In this document: in pieces, positions 2,100 to 11,799 of the stretch
Position numbering within the stretch: the first letter of the stretch is position 1
Layout of the letters: each line of letters begins with the position of its first letter
DNA from: an uncultured Clostridia bacterium
GTDB lineage: Bacteria; Bacillota; Clostridia; Christensenellales; Aristaeellaceae
Length of the DNA stretch: 12,076 bases
Assembly (NCBI GenBank): GCA_937907055.1
Contig: CALCTW010000131.1
Location: 1-12,076, forward strand
Direction of reading: 5' to 3'
Notes under the pieces: generated by a model
What the model saw: the letters and a program-made list of their open reading frames with translations, nothing else
What the model was told of the DNA's origin: nothing
Database searches by the model: none
Made by a program: the position numbers and the translations under genes

Positions 2100-3239
2100 A
2101 TGAAAAAAGGGATCGCGCTGCTGACGGCGGCGATGCTGCTGATGGGACTTTTGACCGGCTGCGCTTTCGCGGCGGGTAGCGGGCTGTACAGGATCGGGGA
2201 TAAAATAGAAGATTTTTCGGTGGAGCTGTGCGACGGAAGCACCTTCACGCTGAGCGAGGCCTGCGCGGAGCGTGATCTGGTGATGATCAATATCTGGGCT
2301 TCCTGGTGCGGCCCCTGCCGGAATGAATTCCCCTTTATGGAGAAGGCGTATGAACAGTATCGGGACAGGGTGGCGCTGGTGTGCCTCTCGATCGATCCCG
2401 GTGATACCAACACGGCGATCGCGGCGTTTATGGAGCGTCAGGGGCTGACCGCCCTTCCGATGGGCTATGACGCCGCGGGGGTGGGAAACCGGCTGGTAAA
2501 GCAGGGCTATCCCACCACGGTGCTGGTGGACAAGGACGGGACTTATGTGTATTACGAATGCGGCAGCCTGCCTTCCGTGGCAGCGTTCACGGAGATGTTT
2601 GACAGATTCCTGAACGGCGGCGCAGCGGCCTGCGCGCTGGACCTGAGCCCGGCGCTGAACGACAGACAATTGACCCTGACCCTGATCCCGGAGAGCGACG
2701 CGGCGGTGATCGACTGCAGCGATGTATTCAGTGCCGAAGATCTGCATTTTGAACACAAGTATGATCATCCGGATTACTGGAGCGTGATGCAATCCGATAT
2801 CCTGATCATGAATTATTCGGGCGCGGATCCTTATCCGGTGATGCGGACGATGCTGTATTATAACGGCACGGTGCCTGCCGGCGTGAACGCGGTCAGCTTT
2901 ATATTGGGCGGCAGGACGTTCAGACTGACGGGACTTGAGCTTCATAAACAGATGGGCATGGATCGGGACCGCGCGTATGAAGCCATGCTGATCCTCTACG
3001 GACCCGACACGATGGCATTCGCGGATGCCGTGATCGCGTACGCGGAGGAAGCGGCGACGAACGGAGAACAGAACACGCTGCAGGCGACGATGGTGCTGCA
3101 CGGAACAGAGGATCTGACGGTGACGCTGAATGCCGAACCGCTGCTGGACCTGTATCACGTGGCGGCCGGCTTCAAGGCGATCGGCGGCCCCGATTACGCG
3201 GGGTATGTGGGGGCAGGAACACCTGCCGCGGAACAGTAA
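2100..3239 (+). CDS. Lipoprotein: N-terminal TlpA/ResA-like thioredoxin (thiol-disulfide oxidoreductase) fused to an unnamed C-terminal FEHKY...LHGTEDL domain (paralog 1)
   Basis: Signal peptide with canonical lipobox LLTGC (Cys21). Thioredoxin active site WASWCGPC (WCGPC encoded at nt 2304-2318), plus the YPTTVLVDKDG pattern typical of the TlpA/AhpC-TSA fold. Residues from about 175 to 379 are homologous to the next two paralogs. RBS GGGAGG lies 8 nt upstream. Confidence 0.85.
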   Translation: MKKGIALLTAAMLLMGLLTGCAFAAGSGLYRIGDKIEDFSVELCDGSTFTLSEACAERDLVMINIWASWCGPCRNEFPFMEKAYEQYRDRVALVCLSIDPGDTNTAIAAFMERQGLTALPMGYDAAGVGNRLVKQGYPTTVLVDKDGTYVYYECGSLPSVAAFTEMFDRFLNGGAAACALDLSPALNDRQLTLTLIPESDAAVIDCSDVFSAEDLHFEHKYDHPDYWSVMQSDILIMNYSGADPYPVMRTMLYYNGTVPAGVNAVSFILGGRTFRLTGLELHKQMGMDRDRAYEAMLILYGPDTMAFADAVIAYAEEAATNGEQNTLQATMVLHGTEDLTVTLNAEPLLDLYHVAAGFKAIGGPDYAGYVGAGTPAAEQ

Positions 3240-3260: not shown

Positions 3261-3932
3261 TTGAAAAAGACGATTGGCGTGATGCTCGCGGCGGCGCTGC
3301 TTTTTGCTGCCTGTACGGCGCTGGCCGGTACGCTGGACCTGACACCGGTGAAGGAAAGCGAATCCCTTGTGATGCAGGTGGATGAAAAACAGAATATCGC
3401 CCTCATCACCTGCGATAAGGCGCTGAGCGTGGCTGACCGGCATTTTGAACACAAGTATGAGCATCCGAAACGGTGGAGTTTTATCGCTTCGGATATCATC
3501 ATCGGGGATTATTACGGCGCGGAGCCTTATCCTGTGATGCAGACCTGGATCTACTATGAGGGGACCCGGGCGATCAACGCGTACGCCGCGACCTTCCGGA
3601 TCAACGGGAAGGAATATACGGTGACCGGGATCGGAAATGAGGCGCGGCGAACCGGCCAGGAAGGCGATGTGAGCGAGGCGCTGGGCATCATCTACGGACC
3701 GGAAACGCAGGAGCTGATGGTGGCGCTGCATGATTATGAGGGAGAACTGCTCTCCGCCGGAAACTACAGCGGCGGAGTGACCGTGGTGCTGCACGGGACG
3801 GAGGACCTGGAGATCCGGATGAACGCGAAGGCGCTGATGGATTTTTACATCATCGGCAATGTGTTTTCGGAGATCAACGGGTTTGATTATTTCGGCCTGA
3901 CCGGCGGCGGGACCCCGGTGACGGCGCGGTGA
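3261..3932 (+). CDS. Secreted or lipoprotein of unknown function, FEHKYEHP...LHGTEDLE domain (paralog 2)
   Basis: TTG start 9 nt after GGGAGG (3246-3251). Signal peptide MKKTIGVMLAAALLFAACTALAG, with either a weak lipobox (FAAC) or a type I cleavage site (ALA-G). Blocks HFEHKYEHP (3441-3467) and LHGTEDLEI (3789-...) are shared with paralogs 1 and 3. Confidence 0.8.
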   Translation: MKKTIGVMLAAALLFAACTALAGTLDLTPVKESESLVMQVDEKQNIALITCDKALSVADRHFEHKYEHPKRWSFIASDIIIGDYYGAEPYPVMQTWIYYEGTRAINAYAATFRINGKEYTVTGIGNEARRTGQEGDVSEALGIIYGPETQELMVALHDYEGELLSAGNYSGGVTVVLHGTEDLEIRMNAKALMDFYIIGNVFSEINGFDYFGLTGGGTPVTAR

Positions 3933-4115: not shown

Positions 4116-4724
4116 ATGAAAAAACATTTATCACGATCTTTTGCTCTACTCTTTTGTTTTGTCCTTGCGCTGAATATTTATTCACCGGCATTGGCGGAGA
4201 TCCCGGACGCTACTTTCCGGGAAATGATCCGGTATTGGATGGGAATCGAGATCCCGGAGGAGATTCCCTGTGTTGAAACACATATCATGGATGAGAATTT
4301 TGTGAGAACAGGTGAGATCAAATATTATTACGAACTGCCGGATGAAAAAACCGGAGAAAGTCATTTTCTTATGATCGTGCCCCGTGATAGTTATCTCTCT
4401 TTTTCTCATCCGGTGCCGGCAGATGAAGAAACGAGCCCGATTGTTGATGAAGAAACAGGCAGAGCACTGGTTTTGCAGATTTGTGAGCGTTATCATCTCT
4501 TTGGAAATGACGGGTCGCTCTCCTATGAGGAATTGCTGGAACAGCGAAATGCTGTGATGTATCCATATCCCATCATCGAACCGACGAAACGCCTTTGGCG
4601 ATGCGTCATGGATGCAGATGCAGAGGGATACGGCAGTGCAGATTTGATGTTCGATATTCAGGATATGAAAGTTGTATATGTGTTTCTTCGATATGAAAAG
4701 TTTGAAATCATATTGGAAAATTGA
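4116..4724 (+). CDS. Secreted hypothetical protein (Sec signal peptide), lower-GC cassette gene
   Basis: 202 aa. MKKHLSRSFALLFCFVLALNIYSPALA-E is a type I signal peptide. RBS AAAGGA lies about 9 nt upstream. I recognise no family. Codon usage and GC content are visibly different from the flanking genes. Confidence 0.7.
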   Translation: MKKHLSRSFALLFCFVLALNIYSPALAEIPDATFREMIRYWMGIEIPEEIPCVETHIMDENFVRTGEIKYYYELPDEKTGESHFLMIVPRDSYLSFSHPVPADEETSPIVDEETGRALVLQICERYHLFGNDGSLSYEELLEQRNAVMYPYPIIEPTKRLWRCVMDADAEGYGSADLMFDIQDMKVVYVFLRYEKFEIILEN

Positions 4725-4874: not shown

Positions 4875-4903
4875 CTATGCATCAAAAAGACGGAGGGTTT
4901 CAG

Positions 4904-5584
4904 ATGAAAAAGTTTTTTGCTTTGATGATGGCATTGGTGCTGATGCTGAGCATCTGCCCGGCATTCGCGGCGGGACTGGATATGTCCTATGTGGATAAGC
5001 ATGCGGATGTGTATTCTGTGTATATTCCGGAGGATGAACCGACCAAGGCGTTTATCGATACGTCCAACGGCTTTGGTGTGGATGAGCTGGCCTTTGAGCA
5101 TAAGTATGAGCATCCCAATCGCTACAGCTACATTTCCACCGATATCATCGTGTTTGATTACGGTACCGATGACGCGGAAGCTTATCTGCGCACCTGGATC
5201 TGCTATGAGGGCACTGAGCCGATCTACGCTACCTCCTGCACCTTTGTGGTGGACGGCGTGAAGTATACGCTGAGCGATCTTTCCGATCCCGATGATATGG
5301 GCGTGGATGACGGCGGCGTGTATCAGGATATGTGCATCCTGTATGACACGAAGAACATGGATGTGCTCTCCGCGCTGTACAGCTTTGTGCAGACCCGGAT
5401 CGAACAGGAAGACTATGACAGCATCGAGATCCCTGTGATCCTGCATGGTACGGAGGATCTGGAGATCGTGATGGGCGGCATGTCCCTGCTGGACCTGTGC
5501 TATATGCTGGATGCCTTTGATTTCATGGGCGCGCTGGCGATGATGGCGCCGCTGAGCAATGCCTCGCCGCTGACCATCGAATGA
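4904..5584 (+). CDS. Secreted or lipoprotein of unknown function, FEHKYEHP...LHGTEDLE domain (paralog 3)
   Basis: I prefer the start at 4904 (MKKFFALMMALVLMLSICPAFAAG), which is 6 nt after GGAGGG. The ORF-track start at 4877 falls on the predicted transcription start region and has no RBS. Blocks AFEHKYEHP (5090-5116) and LHGTEDLEI (5441-...) are shared with paralogs 1 and 2. Confidence 0.8.
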   Translation: MKKFFALMMALVLMLSICPAFAAGLDMSYVDKHADVYSVYIPEDEPTKAFIDTSNGFGVDELAFEHKYEHPNRYSYISTDIIVFDYGTDDAEAYLRTWICYEGTEPIYATSCTFVVDGVKYTLSDLSDPDDMGVDDGGVYQDMCILYDTKNMDVLSALYSFVQTRIEQEDYDSIEIPVILHGTEDLEIVMGGMSLLDLCYMLDAFDFMGALAMMAPLSNASPLTIE

Positions 5585-5656: not shown

Positions 5657-5797
5657 CGGCAGAAGTAAAAACTGCCGCGTGGTGATGCGATATGGATGAA
5701 GACTATATCGGCGGAAGTAAAAAAGAAACTGCCGCGTGAAAACAAGATATTGAGTGAGCCAACTCTGGCGGATGTAAAAAAAGCGGATGTGAAAAAG
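5657..5797 (+). repeat. Four copies of GCRGAWGTRAAAAA in the M42 leader: two inside hairpins plus one exact tandem 15-mer pair
   Basis: Copy cores lie at 5659-5671, 5711-5724, 5768-5782 and 5783-5797. The first two sit in CGGCAG/CTGCCG-type hairpins (5657-5677 and 5709-5734), and both are followed by the shared string ACTGCCGCGTG. The last two are adjacent 15-mers, GCGGATGTAAAAAAA and GCGGATGTGAAAAAG (13/15 identical). Confidence 0.7.
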
Positions 5798-5809
5798 AGG
5801 AGGATGGAG

Positions 5810-6892
5810 ATGCATACACAGGAAGAACGGCTGCAAATGGTGCAGGAACTGAGCGATGCCTTTGGCCCTTCGGGATTTGAAGACGATGTGCTGCTGGTGG
5901 CGCGGAAGTGGGCCGAGGGGATCGGAAGGATCGAAGAGGATTCGATGCGCAATCTGTATATCCACCGTAAGGAGAATACCGGGAATAAGCCCGTGCTGAT
6001 GCTGGACGCGCACAGCGATGAAGTGGGCTTTATGGTGCATTCGATCCATAATAACGGCACACTGCGCTTTGTGACGCTGGGCGGCTGGAACCGGATGGCG
6101 CTGGCGAGCGCCGATGTGCTGGTGCGTAACGCGAAGGGCGAATACCTGCCCGGCATCATCGCGGCCAAGCCCGTGCACTTCCAGACCGCGGCGGAAAAGA
6201 ACGGCGGTGTGCCGGAGATCTCTTCCTTTGTGATCGATATCGGCGCGACCTCGAAGGAGGAGGCCGTGAATGATTTTCATATCCGTATTGGCGAGCCGGT
6301 GGTGCCGGCGACCCGTTTCCGTGCGGATGAAAAGCGCGGGCTGCTGTTCGGCAAGGGCTTTGACTGCCGTATCGGCGTGGCGGCGCTGCTGGAAACGCTG
6401 GACCGTCTGCAGGGCGTGGAGCTGCCCTGCGATGTGATCGGCGTGCTGTCCTCGCAGGAGGAAGTGGGCGAGCGAGGCTGCAAGGTATCGGTGAAGCACG
6501 CGAAGCCGGATATCGCTTACGTGTTCGAGGGCTGTCCCGCGGATGATACCTTTACCGAGCCCTACGCCATCCAGACCGCGCTGCGCAAGGGCCCCATGCT
6601 GCGCTTTATGGATGTGTCGGTCATCATCAACCCGCGCTATCAGCGCTTTGTGCTGGATCTGGCGGAGCAAAAGGGCATTCCGGCGCAGGCCAGCGTGCGC
6701 GAGGGCGGCGGCAATGACGCGGCGATCATCCAGAGCGCGCTGGAGGGCACGCCTGCCGTGGTGGCCGGGGTGCCGGTGCGCTATATCCACTCCATGAACT
6801 GCATTACCACACTGGAGGACCTGGAATACAGCGTGCGGCTGGCGGTGGAGACCGCGAAGGCGCTCACGCCGGATGTGATCGGGCGCTTCTGA
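5810..6892 (+). CDS. M42-family metallo-aminopeptidase (glutamyl aminopeptidase / FrvX / YsdC-like)
   Basis: Motifs LDAHSDEVGFMVHSI, GGWN, QEEVGERG and the C-terminal pattern match the M42 peptidase family. I prefer the start at ATG 5810, 6 nt after AGGAGG (5799-5803); ATG 5804 is also possible. The ORF-track start at 5696 adds a lysine-rich extension with no good RBS. Confidence 0.85.
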   Translation: MHTQEERLQMVQELSDAFGPSGFEDDVLLVARKWAEGIGRIEEDSMRNLYIHRKENTGNKPVLMLDAHSDEVGFMVHSIHNNGTLRFVTLGGWNRMALASADVLVRNAKGEYLPGIIAAKPVHFQTAAEKNGGVPEISSFVIDIGATSKEEAVNDFHIRIGEPVVPATRFRADEKRGLLFGKGFDCRIGVAALLETLDRLQGVELPCDVIGVLSSQEEVGERGCKVSVKHAKPDIAYVFEGCPADDTFTEPYAIQTALRKGPMLRFMDVSVIINPRYQRFVLDLAEQKGIPAQASVREGGGNDAAIIQSALEGTPAVVAGVPVRYIHSMNCITTLEDLEYSVRLAVETAKALTPDVIGRF

Positions 6893-6953
6893 AACGCGGA
6901 GCATAAATGAATACAGGCCGCCGGACGCGTATCCGGCAAGGGCGGCAGAAGAC

Positions 6954-6982
6954 AGCACAGCCGAAAACGGCTGTGCTTTTTG
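6954..6982 (+). terminator. Rho-independent terminator
   Basis: AGCACAGCCG (6954-6963), an AAAA loop, CGGCTGTGCT (6968-6977), then TTTTT (6978-6982). A second GC-rich hairpin (GCCGCC...GGCGGC, about 6918-6946) lies just upstream. Confidence 0.85.
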
Positions 6983-7188
6983 CGTTAAAAACACACGAAG
7001 GGACGGCGACGGAGGGGAGAATTAATAAACGAAAATGAAAAGAGATTAAATGATGGTTGTACGAAAGAGAAGGGTTACTGAGATTATATTCCGCGGGGAA
7101 ATGGTCTATCATAAGCACTGTCAGGAGGAACAAGGAACCGACTGACAGAGAAAAAAAGAGAACGCCCAAAGGGCAGGAGGAAATGAAA

Positions 7189-7428
7189 ATGAAGACTCAG
7201 ATGAACGAAATGGAACTGAACATGGTGAACGGCGGTATCGAGATGGAAGATGTGATGGACCTTGCGAACCAGGTGGCCGTGGTGGTAGACAAAGCGATCA
7301 AGGGTGTGAACAGCGCGATGCTGCCGGATCACGTGATGATCAACGCGTGCGCCGCCGGTGAGGAAGCCCCCGGAACATTCCTGCCGGGTCTGGTGATCGA
7401 TGGCGGAAGGATGCGCGCCGGCCGCTGA
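7189..7428 (+). CDS. 79-aa peptide precursor with an N-terminal double-glycine (GG) leader; predicted 63-aa acidic core
   Basis: ATG 7189 lies 8 nt after GGAGG (7176-7180). The leader is MKTQMNEMELNMVNGG, with predicted cleavage after nt 7236. It has Val at -4, Leu at -7, Glu at -8 and Met at -12, matching the class II bacteriocin/peptide-pheromone GG-leader consensus. The longer ORF-track start at 7057 has no RBS. Confidence 0.6.
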   Translation: MKTQMNEMELNMVNGGIEMEDVMDLANQVAVVVDKAIKGVNSAMLPDHVMINACAAGEEAPGTFLPGLVIDGGRMRAGR

Positions 7429-7657
7429 GCAAAACGGGAAAGACTGAACAAAACGACAGACCGCGCGGAGATGAGCGCGGAAGATACAAAGCATAACGAA
7501 AGAAAAAAAGACGTGTGCCGGGAACGGCAGAAAGGAAAATGTGGAGAAGATCTTTGAGTACGCGGGACGCTGAGACCGGGAAAGCGTGAAGATGAAAAAA
7601 ACGAGATGAGAAAAAATAAGAAGATCAGATCAGGCGCGGAATGGACGCGCGAAAATG

Positions 7658-7693
7658 AAAAGAGGCATCGCTGAAAAGCGGTGCCTCTTTTTG
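7658..7693. terminator. Bidirectional rho-independent terminator shared by the convergent genes
   Basis: GAGGCATCGC (7662-7671) pairs with GCGGTGCCTC (7678-7687), including one G-U pair, around a TGAAAA loop. It is flanked by an A-run (7658-7661) and a T-run (7688-7692), so either strand reads as a stem followed by Us. Confidence 0.75.
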
Positions 7694-7740
7694 ATGGGAA
7701 CGGACACGCCGGGAAAAGACCTGAGGCGCGCCGGGGAAGA

Positions 7741-8967
7741 TCAGTTGTCCTTGCGCTTGCGCAGGAGGTATTCGTCCAGATCGTTCTTGACCTTGTCCGG
7801 CATGGCGCGGCCGACCGGGAAGACCTTCGCGGAGGCCAGACAGGCGGTGAAGGCGGCGGCAAAATCGATATCACGGGCAAGCTGATCCGCCGAGAGGACA
7901 GCGATGGTGTCGTAGCGGTTGTGGATGGTGGACTGGCTGGGCGGCGTGACACGGGCAAAGGAGAGCGCGGGAACACCGGCATCAGCGAAGGGGGTGGAAT
8001 CGGAGGAATAGACGCCGGTGCGCACCTTGATGCCGAAGCCCTCGAGCGCGGCGAAGTATTCGATGAAGTGATTGAGGCGTTCTTCGGCGGAAACACAGGC
8101 GATGAAGCGGCCCATGATGGTGCCGACCATATCGAAGTTGATATTGAGCATGAAACGGGAAAGCTCCGCCTCATGATCGCGCACATAGGCCTTGGAGCCG
8201 AGCAGGCCGCGCTCCTCACTGCCGCAGAAGACGAAGCGCAGACCGTAGGTGAGCTTCCTGTCCTTCAGGGCTTCCATGATGCCGAGGAGGGCGACACAGC
8301 CGGTCATGTTATCATAGCTGCCGACGGAGAGCGGAACGGTATCATAGTGCGCGGTAAGGACGATGTATTCATCCTTCTCGCCGGGGATCTCGGCCACGAC
8401 ATTGTGGGATTCGCCGTCCCATTCTTCATTGGCAATCTCGATGCGGACAGTCTTGGGCGCCATGGCGACCAGTTTGGCCGCGGTGCGGGCATGAACATTG
8501 ACGCCCGGCAGCTTTTTGCCGCAGGAGACCACGGGACGAAGCTCCTTGATGTCGATATCATTATCGGGGAGGAAGACGGAGCCGTTGTAGGTGATGAAGC
8601 CAACCGCGCCCTTTTCGTAAAGATCCTGGAAGAGGAAGTGGGTCATGCCGGTATCGACCATGACGATCTTGCCCTTGACATCCGCCATGGAGACGGGATC
8701 GGTGGAGGGGAGATAATAGAACGGGGCTTCGACCGCGGCATCCCCGCAGAGGGCATAGCCGGTGCAGACGACCTCCTCACCGTCAGCGGTGCAGGAAACT
8801 TTGGTGACGCGGCCCATGGTGACGGGGAAGGCTTCCAGATGAGCGGACACGCCCATTTCGGCGCAGCGATCCAGCAGATAGTTGGCGGCGCGCAGTTCTT
8901 CTTCGGTGCCGGAGGTGTGGACATAGGCGGTGTCATTCAGGACACGCATGATCTGTTCTTTTTTCAT
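7741..8967 (-). CDS. M28-family metallo-aminopeptidase with an inserted PA (protease-associated) domain
   Basis: 408 aa. Motifs LTAHYDTV, DNMTGCVALL, CGSEERGLLGS, NFDM and HNRYD fit the M28 zinc ligands and catalytic residues. The segment KGKIVMVD...GAVGFI is PA-domain-like. There is no signal peptide. RBS AAAGGA lies upstream of the ATG at 8967. Confidence 0.85.
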   Translation of the reverse strand: MKKEQIMRVLNDTAYVHTSGTEEELRAANYLLDRCAEMGVSAHLEAFPVTMGRVTKVSCTADGEEVVCTGYALCGDAAVEAPFYYLPSTDPVSMADVKGKIVMVDTGMTHFLFQDLYEKGAVGFITYNGSVFLPDNDIDIKELRPVVSCGKKLPGVNVHARTAAKLVAMAPKTVRIEIANEEWDGESHNVVAEIPGEKDEYIVLTAHYDTVPLSVGSYDNMTGCVALLGIMEALKDRKLTYGLRFVFCGSEERGLLGSKAYVRDHEAELSRFMLNINFDMVGTIMGRFIACVSAEERLNHFIEYFAALEGFGIKVRTGVYSSDSTPFADAGVPALSFARVTPPSQSTIHNRYDTIAVLSADQLARDIDFAAAFTACLASAKVFPVGRAMPDKVKNDLDEYLLRKRKDN

Positions 8968-9767: not shown

Positions 9768-9800
9768 AAAAGGAAGCAGGGAAAGCCGGCTTCCTTTTTT
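9768..9800 (+). terminator. Rho-independent terminator after ridA
   Basis: GGAAGC (9772-9777) pairs with GCTTCC (9789-9794), with an extra GG/CC pair around a GAAAG loop. An A-run lies upstream and TTTTTT follows at 9795-9800. Confidence 0.7.
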
Positions 9801-11097
9801 GATGCGGGAAAGGGATGAGAAGAGCGGAGAGATGAGCGAAGCAAAGGGGAAGAAGCGCGGCGCGGCAGGGTATGCCGAGCAGGCCGGGCTGAAGACGGGC
9901 GAGCTGCTGCAGCTGGCAAAGGCGCTGGGCTATACAAGGCTGACCGCGGTGCATGAAAAATGGATGCTGCAGATGGTGTACGGGCAGCGGGACATGACGC
10001 TGCAGGCGCACCGCGGCAGCTATAAGACGACATGCCTCTGCGTGGCGCTGGCGGTGATGATGACGGAGATGGGCGGAAAGAACATTCTGTTCATGCGGAA
10101 GACGGACGGCGATGTGGCCGAGGTGCTGCGGCAGGTGAGCGGGATATTGAAGCATGAGGCCATGCGGGCGTGGTGTGAAAGGCGGACAGGGAAGGAACTG
10201 AAGGTGATCCGCGCGACGACCTGTGAGATCTCGACCGGGATGTATACGGCCCCGCGCGGCGCGCCGCAGCTGCTGGGCATGGGAACGGGCGGCAGCCTGA
10301 CCGGCAAGCACGCGGATGTGATCGTGACGGATGACATCGTGAACCTGAAGGACCGCCTGAGCCGGGCGGAAAGAGAGCATACGAAAAGCATATACCGCGA
10401 GCTGCAGAATATCCGCAACCGGGGCGGAAGGATTATCAATACGGGAACACCGTGGCACCGGGACGACTGCTTTTCGCTGATGCCGAAGGCGCTGAAGTAT
10501 GACTACAGGAAAACGAAGCTGATCAGCCGGCGAGAGGCGGCGGAGCTGCGCAGGGCGATGACACCGGGGCTGTTTGCCGCGAACTATGAGCTGCGACATA
10601 TCGCGGAGGAGAACGCGCTGTTCGGGGAGATGCCGGCGATGTTTGACGATGAGGAGCTGCTGCGGGACGGCATCGCGCATATCGACGCGGCCTACGGCGG
10701 CGGAGACTGCACCGCGCTGACCTGCATGAGCCGGATCGGGGATGAGATCTATGTGTACGGACGGCTGTGGCATTGTCATGTGGACGCGGCGCTGAACGCG
10801 ATATTGAATGAATGCGACCGGATGCTGTGCCAGCCGGTGTGGTGCGAAACAAACGCGGATAAGGGTTTCCTGGCGCGGGAGATTCGGGAAAAGGGATACG
10901 CGGCGCGGATGTATCATGAGAGTCAGAACAAGTATTACAAGATATCCACCTTCCTGCGGAAGTGGTGGGGGAATATAAGATTCTATGAGGAGACGGACGC
11001 GGAGTATCTGGAGCAGATCGCGGAGTATTCGGAGGAGGCGGAAGCGGATGACGCGCCGGACAGCTGCGCGACGGCGCTGCGCATCCTGACAAGGTGA
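9799..11097 (+). CDS. terL: Phage terminase large subunit (TerL)-like protein: ATPase plus RNase H-like nuclease domains; start codon uncertain
   Basis: Walker A-like HRGSYKTT (10012-10032). Walker B DVIVTDD (10315-10335). Coupling motif TGTPWHRDD (10441-10467). Nuclease acidic residues in HIDAAYGGGD (from 10681), CETNADKG (Glu at 10846) and ADDAPDSCATAL (11047-11061). Candidate starts are TTG 9799, ATG 9802 and ATG 9832; none has a well-spaced SD. Confidence 0.8.
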   Translation: MMRERDEKSGEMSEAKGKKRGAAGYAEQAGLKTGELLQLAKALGYTRLTAVHEKWMLQMVYGQRDMTLQAHRGSYKTTCLCVALAVMMTEMGGKNILFMRKTDGDVAEVLRQVSGILKHEAMRAWCERRTGKELKVIRATTCEISTGMYTAPRGAPQLLGMGTGGSLTGKHADVIVTDDIVNLKDRLSRAEREHTKSIYRELQNIRNRGGRIINTGTPWHRDDCFSLMPKALKYDYRKTKLISRREAAELRRAMTPGLFAANYELRHIAEENALFGEMPAMFDDEELLRDGIAHIDAAYGGGDCTALTCMSRIGDEIYVYGRLWHCHVDAALNAILNECDRMLCQPVWCETNADKGFLAREIREKGYAARMYHESQNKYYKISTFLRKWWGNIRFYEETDAEYLEQIAEYSEEAEADDAPDSCATALRILTR

Positions 11098-11232: not shown

Positions 11233-11799
11233 ATGGAGTGCATTGCACGGGAAAAAGCCTGGGAACTGCTGAAAAAATACAATCAGGATCCTTTTCATCT
11301 GCGTCACGCGCTGACGGTGGAGGCCGTGATGGGCTGGTACGCCGAAGCGCTGGGCTATGAAGCGGATAAGGACTTCTGGAGCACGGTGGGCCTGCTGCAT
11401 GATGTGGATTTTGAAAACTGGCCGGAGCAGCACTGCGTGAAGGCACCGGAGCTGCTGCAGGAGATCGGCGCATCGGATGAGCTGATCCATGCGGTCTGCT
11501 CCCACGGATACGGCCTCTGCTGCGATGTTGAGCCGGTGCATCCGATGGAAAAGATCCTTTTCACGGTGGATGAGCTGACAGGCCTGATTGGCGCCGCGGC
11601 GCTGATGCGCCCGTCAAAGAGCACGAAGGATATGGAAGTTTCCAGCCTGAAAAAGAAGTTTAAAGACAAAAAGTTTGCGGCAGGCTGTTCAAGAGAAGTA
11701 ATTGAGAGAGGCGCAAACCAGCTCGGTTGGGAATTGGACAAGCTTCTTACAATGACATTGTCAGCAATGCAGGCTGTCGAAGACGAGATTCAAGTATAA
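11233..11799 (+). CDS. HD-domain metal-dependent phosphohydrolase (COG2316-like small HD protein)
   Basis: 188 aa. The pattern H(LRH)ALTVEAVM ... GLLHDVDF ... HAVCSHGYG is the H...HD...H pattern of small Firmicute HD-superfamily hydrolases. RBS GAGGAAAAAAGAT lies before the ATG. Confidence 0.85.
   Translation: MECIAREKAWELLKKYNQDPFHLRHALTVEAVMGWYAEALGYEADKDFWSTVGLLHDVDFENWPEQHCVKAPELLQEIGASDELIHAVCSHGYGLCCDVEPVHPMEKILFTVDELTGLIGAAALMRPSKSTKDMEVSSLKKKFKDKKFAAGCSREVIERGANQLGWELDKLLTMTLSAMQAVEDEIQV

Follow-up and report, generated by a model that had tools for sequence, protein, structure and literature searches.

A small gene for a probable double-glycine-leader peptide with an anionic core, headed by a repeated upstream module, in an uncultured Clostridia bacterium

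Double-glycine (GG) leader peptides deliver bacteriocins and signals in many Gram-positive bacteria, and to our knowledge almost none have been characterised in the uncultured rumen and gut Oscillospiraceae-like Clostridia. Leaders of this class have about 15-30 residues and end in Gly-Gly, or in GA or GS. Structural studies of PCAT1 and of LahT have provided a consensus for the leaders, L(-12)xxxE(-8)L(-7)xxxxG(-2)G(-1) (PMC6959990), and have shown that a hydrophobic groove receives the residues V/M(-4), L(-7) and L(-12) and that no more than the last 13 leader residues are recognised (PMC6363468). LahT150 needs only these 13 residues and cleaves very diverse cores (PMC6363468), and in Streptococcus pneumoniae it is the signal sequence by itself that determines which exporter is used (PMC7018657). 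Here we describe a 79-residue open reading frame (ORF) with such a leader, at positions 7189-7428 (+) of a window that is the entire 12,076-bp contig C131 of an uncultured Clostridia bacterium, in an assembly of 2.55 Mb and 140 contigs with a completeness estimate of 89%. The ORF ends in TGA and translates as quoted in the initial annotation of the window.

We consider it probable that the ORF encodes a genuine GG-leader precursor that is cut and exported in trans by a LahT-like exporter, giving an unmodified, anionic product of 63 residues; this assessment covers the gene and the export mechanism rather than the extracellular role of the product. Sequence features, together with the presence of an exporter in the genome, assign the peptide to the GG-leader precursors as a further member of what is itself a known class, with cleavage and export predicted. 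Read back from the GG, the leader MKTQMNEMELNMVNGG runs M(-12) N E M E(-8) L(-7) N M V(-4) N G G, and it fits the consensus, as the initial annotation had proposed, in its hydrophobic residues at -4, -7 and -12, its acidic residue at -8, and its length of 16 residues ending in G15-G16.

The initial annotation had made a GG-leader reading depend on a C39-peptidase exporter somewhere in the genome, and had suggested a transporter encoded outside the window. The assembly does hold one C39 peptidase domain, which is intact and belongs to an ABC exporter on contig C29 (C29:1-1698, -; PF03412, 117 bits). This exporter matches TIGR03796, the NHLP-type peptidase/permease/ATPase subunit, with 609 bits across 548 of the 710 positions of the model, and comparison of its peptidase domain with that of LahT (PDB 6MPZ) gives 197 bits, with the ECGAASLAM Cys and NHFVVL His motifs identical. 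A check for paralogous leaders, proposed at the same time, turned up ten other GG peptides in the genome, encoded on C3 (two), C34, C52 (three), C57, C67, C83 and C29. V(-4) is found in nine of these, C57 having I(-4), and E(-8)L(-7) in eight, C52a and C29 having D at -8. Most have a 17-residue leader, MNKQMMNMEELEQVNGG, followed by a Trp-rich core that starts NIFTDAWDWLC. Aligned without gaps from the GG, the leader studied here is identical to the leader of this Trp-rich family at 8 of 16 positions (G, G, N-3, V-4, L-7, E-8, N-11 and M-12), and to that of the peptide adjoining the exporter on C29 at seven of the final 13, M(-5)V(-4) among them. The gene, which had been described as an orphan, is therefore an orphan only with respect to its neighbours: the 12-kb contig contains no exporter, immunity gene or regulator, as was first reported, whereas the genome as a whole contains the C39 exporter and about ten peptides with paralogous leaders.

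The exporter lies within a cluster resembling those for ribosomally synthesised and post-translationally modified peptides (C29:1-8445), which comprises the LahT-like exporter, a 164-residue HlyD-like protein, ABC genes, the GG peptide and a radical-SAM gene. An in-frame TAG at 3500-3502 of this contig splits one ABC gene into two halves in the same frame, and the frame of the GG peptide also holds a TAG, giving 46 residues if it is a stop and 79 if it is read through. On C67, a GG-peptide paralogue (11310-11474, -) has TAG at the position of a Trp codon, TGG, that is conserved in its paralogues (DAWD-TAG-LC vs DAWDWLC); this gene is either a nonsense mutant or has its TAG at a site where the codon does not mean Glu. 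Within the window, the sole gene that ends in TAG is a membrane-protein gene at 224-1066, where the sequence reads GTT TAG TGA and a sense TAG would add one residue. A same-genus genome, L020 (G002:C337), encodes further GG-leader peptides whose cargo is quite different, one with a LysM-like domain, recognised by eye, directly after the GG (MNPVELSETELEKVSGGYSEDDFYYYHKVKRGDTLGKIA...), and another with a Trp-rich start and a Gly-rich hydrophobic tail.

A strict version of the leader motif was scanned over the 46,317 ATG-started ORFs of at least 35 residues in the genome, with the mirrored motif as control. Fifteen ORFs matched, ten of them evident GG peptides, and the mirrored control matched 9. 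The motif does arise by chance, as both the five forward matches that do not look like peptides and the mirrored matches indicate, and the product could on this ground be a real but cytoplasmic small protein, in which the GG motif is coincidental and never cleaved; that it is acidic and partly helical, as are many small cytoplasmic proteins, and that the exporter is unlinked would agree with such a protein. However, when a strong Shine-Dalgarno (SD) sequence is required as well, four ORFs remain, all of them GG-peptide candidates and including the peptide ORF, against none for the mirrored motif. Furthermore, the GG stands at the right distance from the N-terminus, with a leader of 16 residues where 8 of the 10 other GG peptides have 17-18, the leader has N(-3), V(-4), L(-7), E(-8), N(-11) and M(-12) in common with the Trp-rich family and 7 of 13 residues in common with the exporter-adjoining peptide, and all other genes behind the upstream module described below look exported. 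A cytoplasmic protein is thus quite improbable, and the coincidental motif that the initial annotation had allowed for is unlikely, given the four matches against none and the gene-like codon usage of the ORF.

A second GG, at residues 72-73, admits another division of the precursor, in which residues 1-73 would be a long leader of the Nif11/NHLP kind ending VIDGG, and the product would be the hexapeptide RMRAGR. The type of the exporter speaks for this, since the usual substrates of NHLP exporters have leaders of 60-80 residues (PMC6363468). Yet the second GG is off-consensus, with I(-4) but G(-7), P(-8) and G(-12), no Nif11 or NHLP leader model (TIGR03798, TIGR03793) matched at E values up to 10, and a six-residue core without Cys, Ser or Thr offers no substrate for typical modifications, whereas the first GG fits the consensus and the other peptides of the genome show short leaders in use. 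The long-leader division, already ranked lower by the initial annotation, was rejected on the off-consensus second GG and the lack of a model match, and we regard it as extremely unlikely.

The ORF is very probably a real small gene, because its codon usage, the spacing of its AGGAGG, the terminators that flank it and the exclusively synonymous changes between strains are all gene-like. Scored with a codon table trained on 787 long ORFs of the genome, it reaches 0.695 bits per codon, compared with 0.54 +/- 0.18 for 79-codon windows of true genes, -1.23 +/- 0.42 for off-frame windows, and at most 0.34 for the other five frames of the same stretch; GC at its first, second and third codon positions stands at 0.65/0.35/0.77, much as in genes, where the values are 0.62/0.40/0.72. 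The well-spaced GGAGG seen in the initial annotation is borne out as the AGGAGG of Table 1, and ATG 7189 is the likely start because an alternative ATG at 7183 is too near to it, at just 2 nt; the in-frame stop on the 5' side is a TGA at 7051. The long antisense frame at 7084-7494 is His/Arg-rich and has worse codon usage than the peptide ORF, and His/Arg-rich mirror frames are typical opposite real genes. The identical protein is recorded from a single further assembly, on a 1.9-kb Logan contig that is 98.3% identical to the window over 1.9 kb, with 33 differences. Two of these fall inside the peptide ORF (7299 and 7302), both at synonymous third positions, and all four indels lie outside both coding sequences, three in the spacers flanking the peptide ORF (two of the four in 7429-7661) and one just beyond the M28 peptidase gene downstream, which itself differs by 18 synonymous and 4 non-synonymous codon changes. 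These differences are a weak but consistent sign of purifying selection on the peptide ORF.

Several points weigh against an exported GG peptide and have to be set beside this evidence. Position -12 of the leader is Met where Leu is canonical; Met also stands at -12 in seven of the ten other GG leaders of the genome. The curated hidden Markov models (HMMs) for bacteriocin signal sequences, which are short and of low power, are not passed: NCBIfam TIGR03949 matches the leader part only (residues 4-17 to model positions 3-16), with 13.3 bits for a cut-off of 21.5, and no match to the bacteriocin signal sequence TIGR01847 was listed for the peptide in this check, which the initial annotation had suggested. 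The clear GG peptides of the genome also fall below the curated cut-offs, four scoring 10.4-13.2 bits with TIGR03949 and the exporter-adjoining peptide 17.0. The top 40 matches of a tight HMM built from seven near-identical leaders of the Trp-rich family do not include the present leader, and because of this we claim similarity to that family rather than membership; as a paralogue the peptide would be a distant one at best. At the contig end the exporter gene is truncated, its frame staying open for 566 residues and breaking off after the start of the ATPase domain, and it is unlinked to the peptide gene; with an assembly 89% complete, another exporter could exist. No homologue of the peptide was found in the searches given below, and the structure model is poor (predicted local distance difference test, pLDDT, 59). 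Finally, the chance that both changes within the ORF would be synonymous under neutrality is about 0.06 by our own estimate.

Expression of the ORF is addressed by the sequence in front of it. The approximately 165 nt before the ATG (7026-7188) are one copy of a repeated module, other copies of which, 67-88% identical, lie on C99 (two), C41, C26, C15, C94, C92, C84, C19 (two), C134 and C124; a further copy lies on C57. Its first block, the upstream box (Table 1), has 15 matches in the genome when written as the pattern TAAACnAAAAnGnAA, for about 0.3 expected by our own estimate; each match stands 137-171 nt before an ATG preceded by an SD sequence, and in 14 of the 15 that ATG is within a few codons of the gene start of an exported-looking protein. 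Roughly 65 variable bases separate the box from a -10-like hexamer, TATCAT, which is likely a promoter and from which we infer the transcription start; a weak -35-like TTATAT lies 17 nt upstream of it by inspection, and a consensus promoter scan did not call it. The hairpin opened by the invariant 12-mer is predicted in every copy by folding each sequence separately, and a purine-rich spacer leads from it to a second hairpin, whose stems vary while their pairing is kept (GCCC/GGGC, CGCCG/CGGCG, CACC/GGUG, GCGC/GCGC). RNAalifold returned no pairs from a MAFFT alignment of the 5' untranslated regions (5'-UTRs), in which the 3' arms were misaligned, and the per-sequence folds were relied on. The repeat units at the lexA promoter of this genome differ in sequence from the hairpin that follows the -10, and a link between the two was rejected.

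The module appears to be restricted to the species among the 41-61 genomes searched. The 13-mer CACTGTCAGGAGG occurs 12 times in the genome and 0-1 times in each of 60 relatives, and with a sequence model built on the 5'-UTR 14 copies were detected in the genome and none in 40 relatives, three of them of the same genus. An 18-mer scan of metagenome contigs gave 23 matches, all without the rest of the module and attributable to chance. The module has no match in Rfam, and an Rfam scan of 6800-7800 gave nothing credible, its weak matches landing on the terminator downstream of the peptide ORF.

By inspection, with signal peptides judged by eye, every other gene behind the module encodes a Sec-type signal peptide or a GG-like leader. 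Six encode paralogous secreted proteins of about 180 residues, of which both that were scanned with Pfam have two SH3_3 domains, and three encode Asn/Ala-rich proteins of 340-358 residues with signal peptides; two further signal-peptide proteins, of 156 and 325 residues, have no assigned function, and the product of one gene is a peptide of 109 residues that starts with a GG-like leader and has a hydrophobic, Gly-rich tail. The GG genes of the Trp-rich family have a looser form of the module, consisting of the box, the -10, a hairpin containing GGAGG, and a hairpin before the ribosome-binding site. Two related module peptides of 47-49 residues, MKTAMTKLTGTFTRMKKAIGRAFDAYDKALLELRGTPAFINCMQPMR and MKTMMTKLAVSVNRMRMAIGHMFDAYEQALNELIGTPAYPQLFETCEMM, have Cys-containing C-terminal tails and may be precursors of signalling peptides.

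This arrangement supports expression of the peptide ORF and its grouping with exported products; the module itself may act as a promoter bound by a regulator, as a leader that stabilises the mRNA, or as both. A contrary view of the same repeat is that there is no gene here, and that a duplicated promoter/5'-UTR module landed in the spacer in front of an ORF that is untranslated, or very young and functionless. The module does head unrelated coding sequences, the ORF has no homologue anywhere searched, and the order M42-peptide-M28 is unique to the species. Nevertheless, in-frame codon usage exceeds both the mean of true genes and the other five frames, the strain changes in the ORF are all synonymous while the indels fall in spacers, and a complete GG leader directly after the start codon is unexpected in random sequence, so that the absence of a functional gene is very unlikely. 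We advance more tentatively, as a possibility to which we give less weight than to the GG-leader precursor itself, that about 15 genes for exported products, which share the ~165-nt module, form a species-restricted secretome regulon to which the peptide belongs. If so, cargo of the Sec pathway and of the peptidase exporter would come under common control, by a single undescribed regulator or a mechanism at the RNA level, and the anionic peptide of 63 residues would be a cargo other than a bacteriocin, for instance a signal, or a partner at the cell surface for the SH3 proteins. The module is also a possible handle on secretome switching, and possibly an expression module for genetic tools in such bacteria; as a by-product of the analysis it is more original than the peptide.

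Pooled together, these elements suggest how the peptide could be made. The gene would be transcribed as its own unit from the module that it has in common with about 14 other genes for exported proteins; the leader would fold into a short helix, by which V(-4), L(-7) and M(-12) would come to lie in the hydrophobic groove of the C39 domain of the LahT-like exporter on C29; and the exporter would cut after Gly16 and pump the unmodified, acidic 63-residue peptide, with its N-terminal amphipathic helix and flexible tail, out of the cell. The observations are that the ORF is gene-like and has the leader features, that the exporter is present with its peptidase domain intact, and that the genome has paralogous leaders and further copies of the upstream module; we infer from them the use of the C29 exporter, the cleavage site, export and an extracellular role.

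The core has 9 D/E, 5 K/R and one Cys, in agreement with the counts first made, a mass of about 6.57 kDa, a pI of 4.56 and a net charge of about -4. Its acidity, which the initial annotation called atypical, is not unusual in this genome, because three of the six other GG cores computed are acidic (pI 4.5-5.0). A single-sequence AlphaFold model has a moderately amphipathic helix (hydrophobic moment about 0.5) at precursor residues 19-41 and disorder elsewhere. The core lacks a Gly-rich hydrophobic segment such as the C57 and C92 peptides of the genome have, and it lacks the set of Cys, Ser and Thr that would suggest modification. A word-indexed search of 5.8 billion clustered proteins returned the peptide itself only (2 members), and a full phmmer search of 1.84 billion representatives the peptide itself and one spurious protein of 4,211 residues. 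Six-frame searches of 60 relatives, three of the same genus, reached a best E of 0.03, with all matches in large unrelated ORFs; no homologue was found in scans of genome contigs and metagenome contigs, in plasmids or in phages, no paralogue of the core was found in its own genome, and Pfam and NCBIfam gave no match in the core.

In view of the anionic core and its want of a Gly-rich hydrophobic segment, we do not favour a classical cationic pore-forming class II bacteriocin; we favour a secreted peptide whose targets would be surfaces or other cells, and whose role would be that of a signal or of an antagonist with a narrow range. The rival reading of an ordinary unmodified class II-like bacteriocin, with its immunity gene and exporter elsewhere and a mature peptide that kills related bacteria, would share the export mechanism proposed above and differ in the extracellular role only. 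The GG leader and a peptidase-containing exporter in the genome are as such a bacteriocin would have them, the leader-only matches are to class IIb models, the moment of the helix at 19-41 is compatible with it, and an ORFan core fits, in our own reasoning, with fast-evolving antagonistic peptides. In charge, in hydrophobicity and in its want of an adjacent immunity gene, however, the peptide departs from class II bacteriocins: it carries a net charge of -4 and has neither a Gly-rich nor a hydrophobic membrane segment of the kind seen in the C57 and C92 peptides, no small hydrophobic ORF resembling an immunity gene lies in the 234 nt before the terminator, and no bacteriocin family model matches the core. 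We therefore think a bacteriocin of this ordinary kind unlikely, though less so than a cytoplasmic protein, and retain action on surfaces or other cells as the preferred role.

Table 1. Coordinates of the features discussed, given on the window (C131) unless another contig is named
Feature	Position	Strand	Remarks
M42 peptidase gene	5696-6892	+	Pfam 9e-73
Terminator of the upstream M42 gene	6954-6977	+	10 pairs (7 G-C), then T-run
Upstream box TAAACGAAAATGAAA	7026-7040	+	first conserved block of the module (TAAACGAAAACGAAA); columns invariant in alignment
-10-like hexamer TATCAT	7107-7112	+	TATAAT in most copies; conserved alignment columns
Invariant 12-mer ACTGTCAGGAGG	7117-7128	+	identical in 13 of 13 aligned copies; contains SD-like GGAGG
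5' hairpin opened by the 12-mer	7118-7148	+	predicted stem CUGUCAG (7118-7124) with CUGACAG (7142-7148)
Short hairpin GCCC-AAA-GGGC	7164-7174	+	directly before the ribosome-binding site; RNAfold, all copies
Shine-Dalgarno AGGAGG	7175-7180	+	8 nt 5' of ATG 7189; 7-9 nt in module copies
Double-glycine leader MKTQMNEMELNMVNGG, 16 codons	7189-7236	+	predicted cleavage after Gly16
Core (cargo), 63 residues and TGA stop	7237-7428	+	acidic; one Cys; tail ends RMRAGR
Terminator, strong hairpin and T-run	7662-7692	+	234 nt 3' of the peptide stop codon
M28 peptidase gene	7741-8967	-	convergent with the peptide ORF; Pfam 4e-34
GG peptide MAERQALNLDELEMVAGG...	C29:7420		in the exporter cluster
Radical-SAM gene	C29:7720-8445		
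Module peptide, 47-49 residues	C57:11144	+	
Module peptide, 47-49 residues	C52	-	~146 nt after the box at 4686

The terminator behind the upstream M42 gene (Table 1) suggests that the peptide gene is its own transcription unit. At the other end, the inner part (7669-7683) of the downstream terminator was found by a terminator scan and its 10-bp stem, GAGGCAUCGC/GCGGUGCCUC, by inspection; this hairpin probably ends the peptide transcript and, on the other strand, that of the convergent M28 gene. The stretch between stop codon and terminator (7429-7661) is unusually long and purine-rich. On the + strand it contains no ORF of at least 40 residues, its shorter frames have no good SD sequence and none is convincing, and the stretch has no paralogue elsewhere in the genome.

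The identification of the two flanking genes as M42 and M28 aminopeptidases was upheld by Pfam, but a meaning for that neighbourhood was not. Orthologues of the M28 gene, 49-63% identical, occur in two same-genus genomes and in 21 other metagenome-assembled genomes of uncultured rumen and gut Oscillospiraceae, Ruminococcaceae and Clostridia, with differing downstream neighbours, and in these 23 relatives no M42 gene, GG-type ORF or upstream module lies within about 2.5 kb of them. A functional link between peptide and aminopeptidases was dropped on this account, and by the comparison of gene order the aminopeptidase neighbours are incidental.

Elsewhere in the window, three tandem paralogues (2100-3239, 3261-3932 and 4877-5584) with lipoprotein-like or signal-peptide N-termini have in common a domain of about 200 residues with the motifs FEHKYEHP and VLHGTEDLE and no Pfam match; the first of them additionally has an AhpC/TSA-redoxin (thioredoxin-like) domain. 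A solitary gene of 432 residues at 9799-11097, between a RidA gene and an HD-domain gene, has a weak match to the RNase-H-like domain of phage terminases (PF22530, E 0.005), and there are no other phage genes in the window.

If the peptide is exported as proposed, one LahT-like exporter apparently serves about eleven dispersed precursors with unrelated cores. An anionic ORFan core such as this would probably be missed by standard bacteriocin mining that relies on core HMMs and neighbouring genes, and the precursor and the C39 domain together offer a concrete and inexpensive means of probing which substrates LahT-type proteases accept.

Of described systems, LahT/LahA of Lachnospiraceae bacterium C6A11 (PDB 6MPZ; Bobeica et al. 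2019, PMC6363468) has the peptidase domain close to that of the C29 exporter, and there too one exporter faces many similar GG leaders with very different cores, with Val(-4) and Leu(-7) present. The LahA leaders are long and of the Nif11 type, however, their cores are lanthipeptides and they are encoded in the exporter's own cluster, whereas the peptide described here has a 16-residue leader, a core with one Cys and no sign of modification, and a gene unlinked to the exporter. PCAT1/CtA of Clostridium thermocellum (Kieuvongngam et al. 2020, PMC6959990), which also belongs to the Clostridia, is very similar in cargo size, CtA having a 24-residue leader and a 66-residue cargo against 16 and 63 here, and its leader consensus, L(-12)xxxE(-8)L(-7)xxxxGG, resembles the present leader; the CtA cargo is unstructured in transit. 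Unlike the peptide, CtA is encoded in the operon of its exporter; its core has no detectable similarity to the one described here, CtA is absent from all search results, and the PCAT1 peptidase domain is distant from that of the C29 exporter (65 bits). Class IIb precursors of the lactobin A/cerein 7B family (TIGR03949) align in the leader part but not in the core, and bacteriocins of this family are cationic or hydrophobic and Gly-rich, whereas the core of the peptide is anionic.

The proposed use of one exporter by several co-regulated GG peptides has its counterpart in S. pneumoniae, in the pool served by ComAB/BlpAB and in the rtg peptides and RtgAB (Wang et al. 2020, PMC7018657). That organism belongs to another phylum-level lineage and its regulators are Rgg/SHP, ComDE and BlpRH, whereas the control element shared here is an undescribed module that also heads genes for Sec-exported proteins. 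A further likeness is within the genome itself, where the Trp-rich family of GG peptides has a similar leader, a looser upstream architecture and cores that are often acidic; unlike the members of that family, the peptide has an unrelated core, and its gene stands behind the full, tight module.

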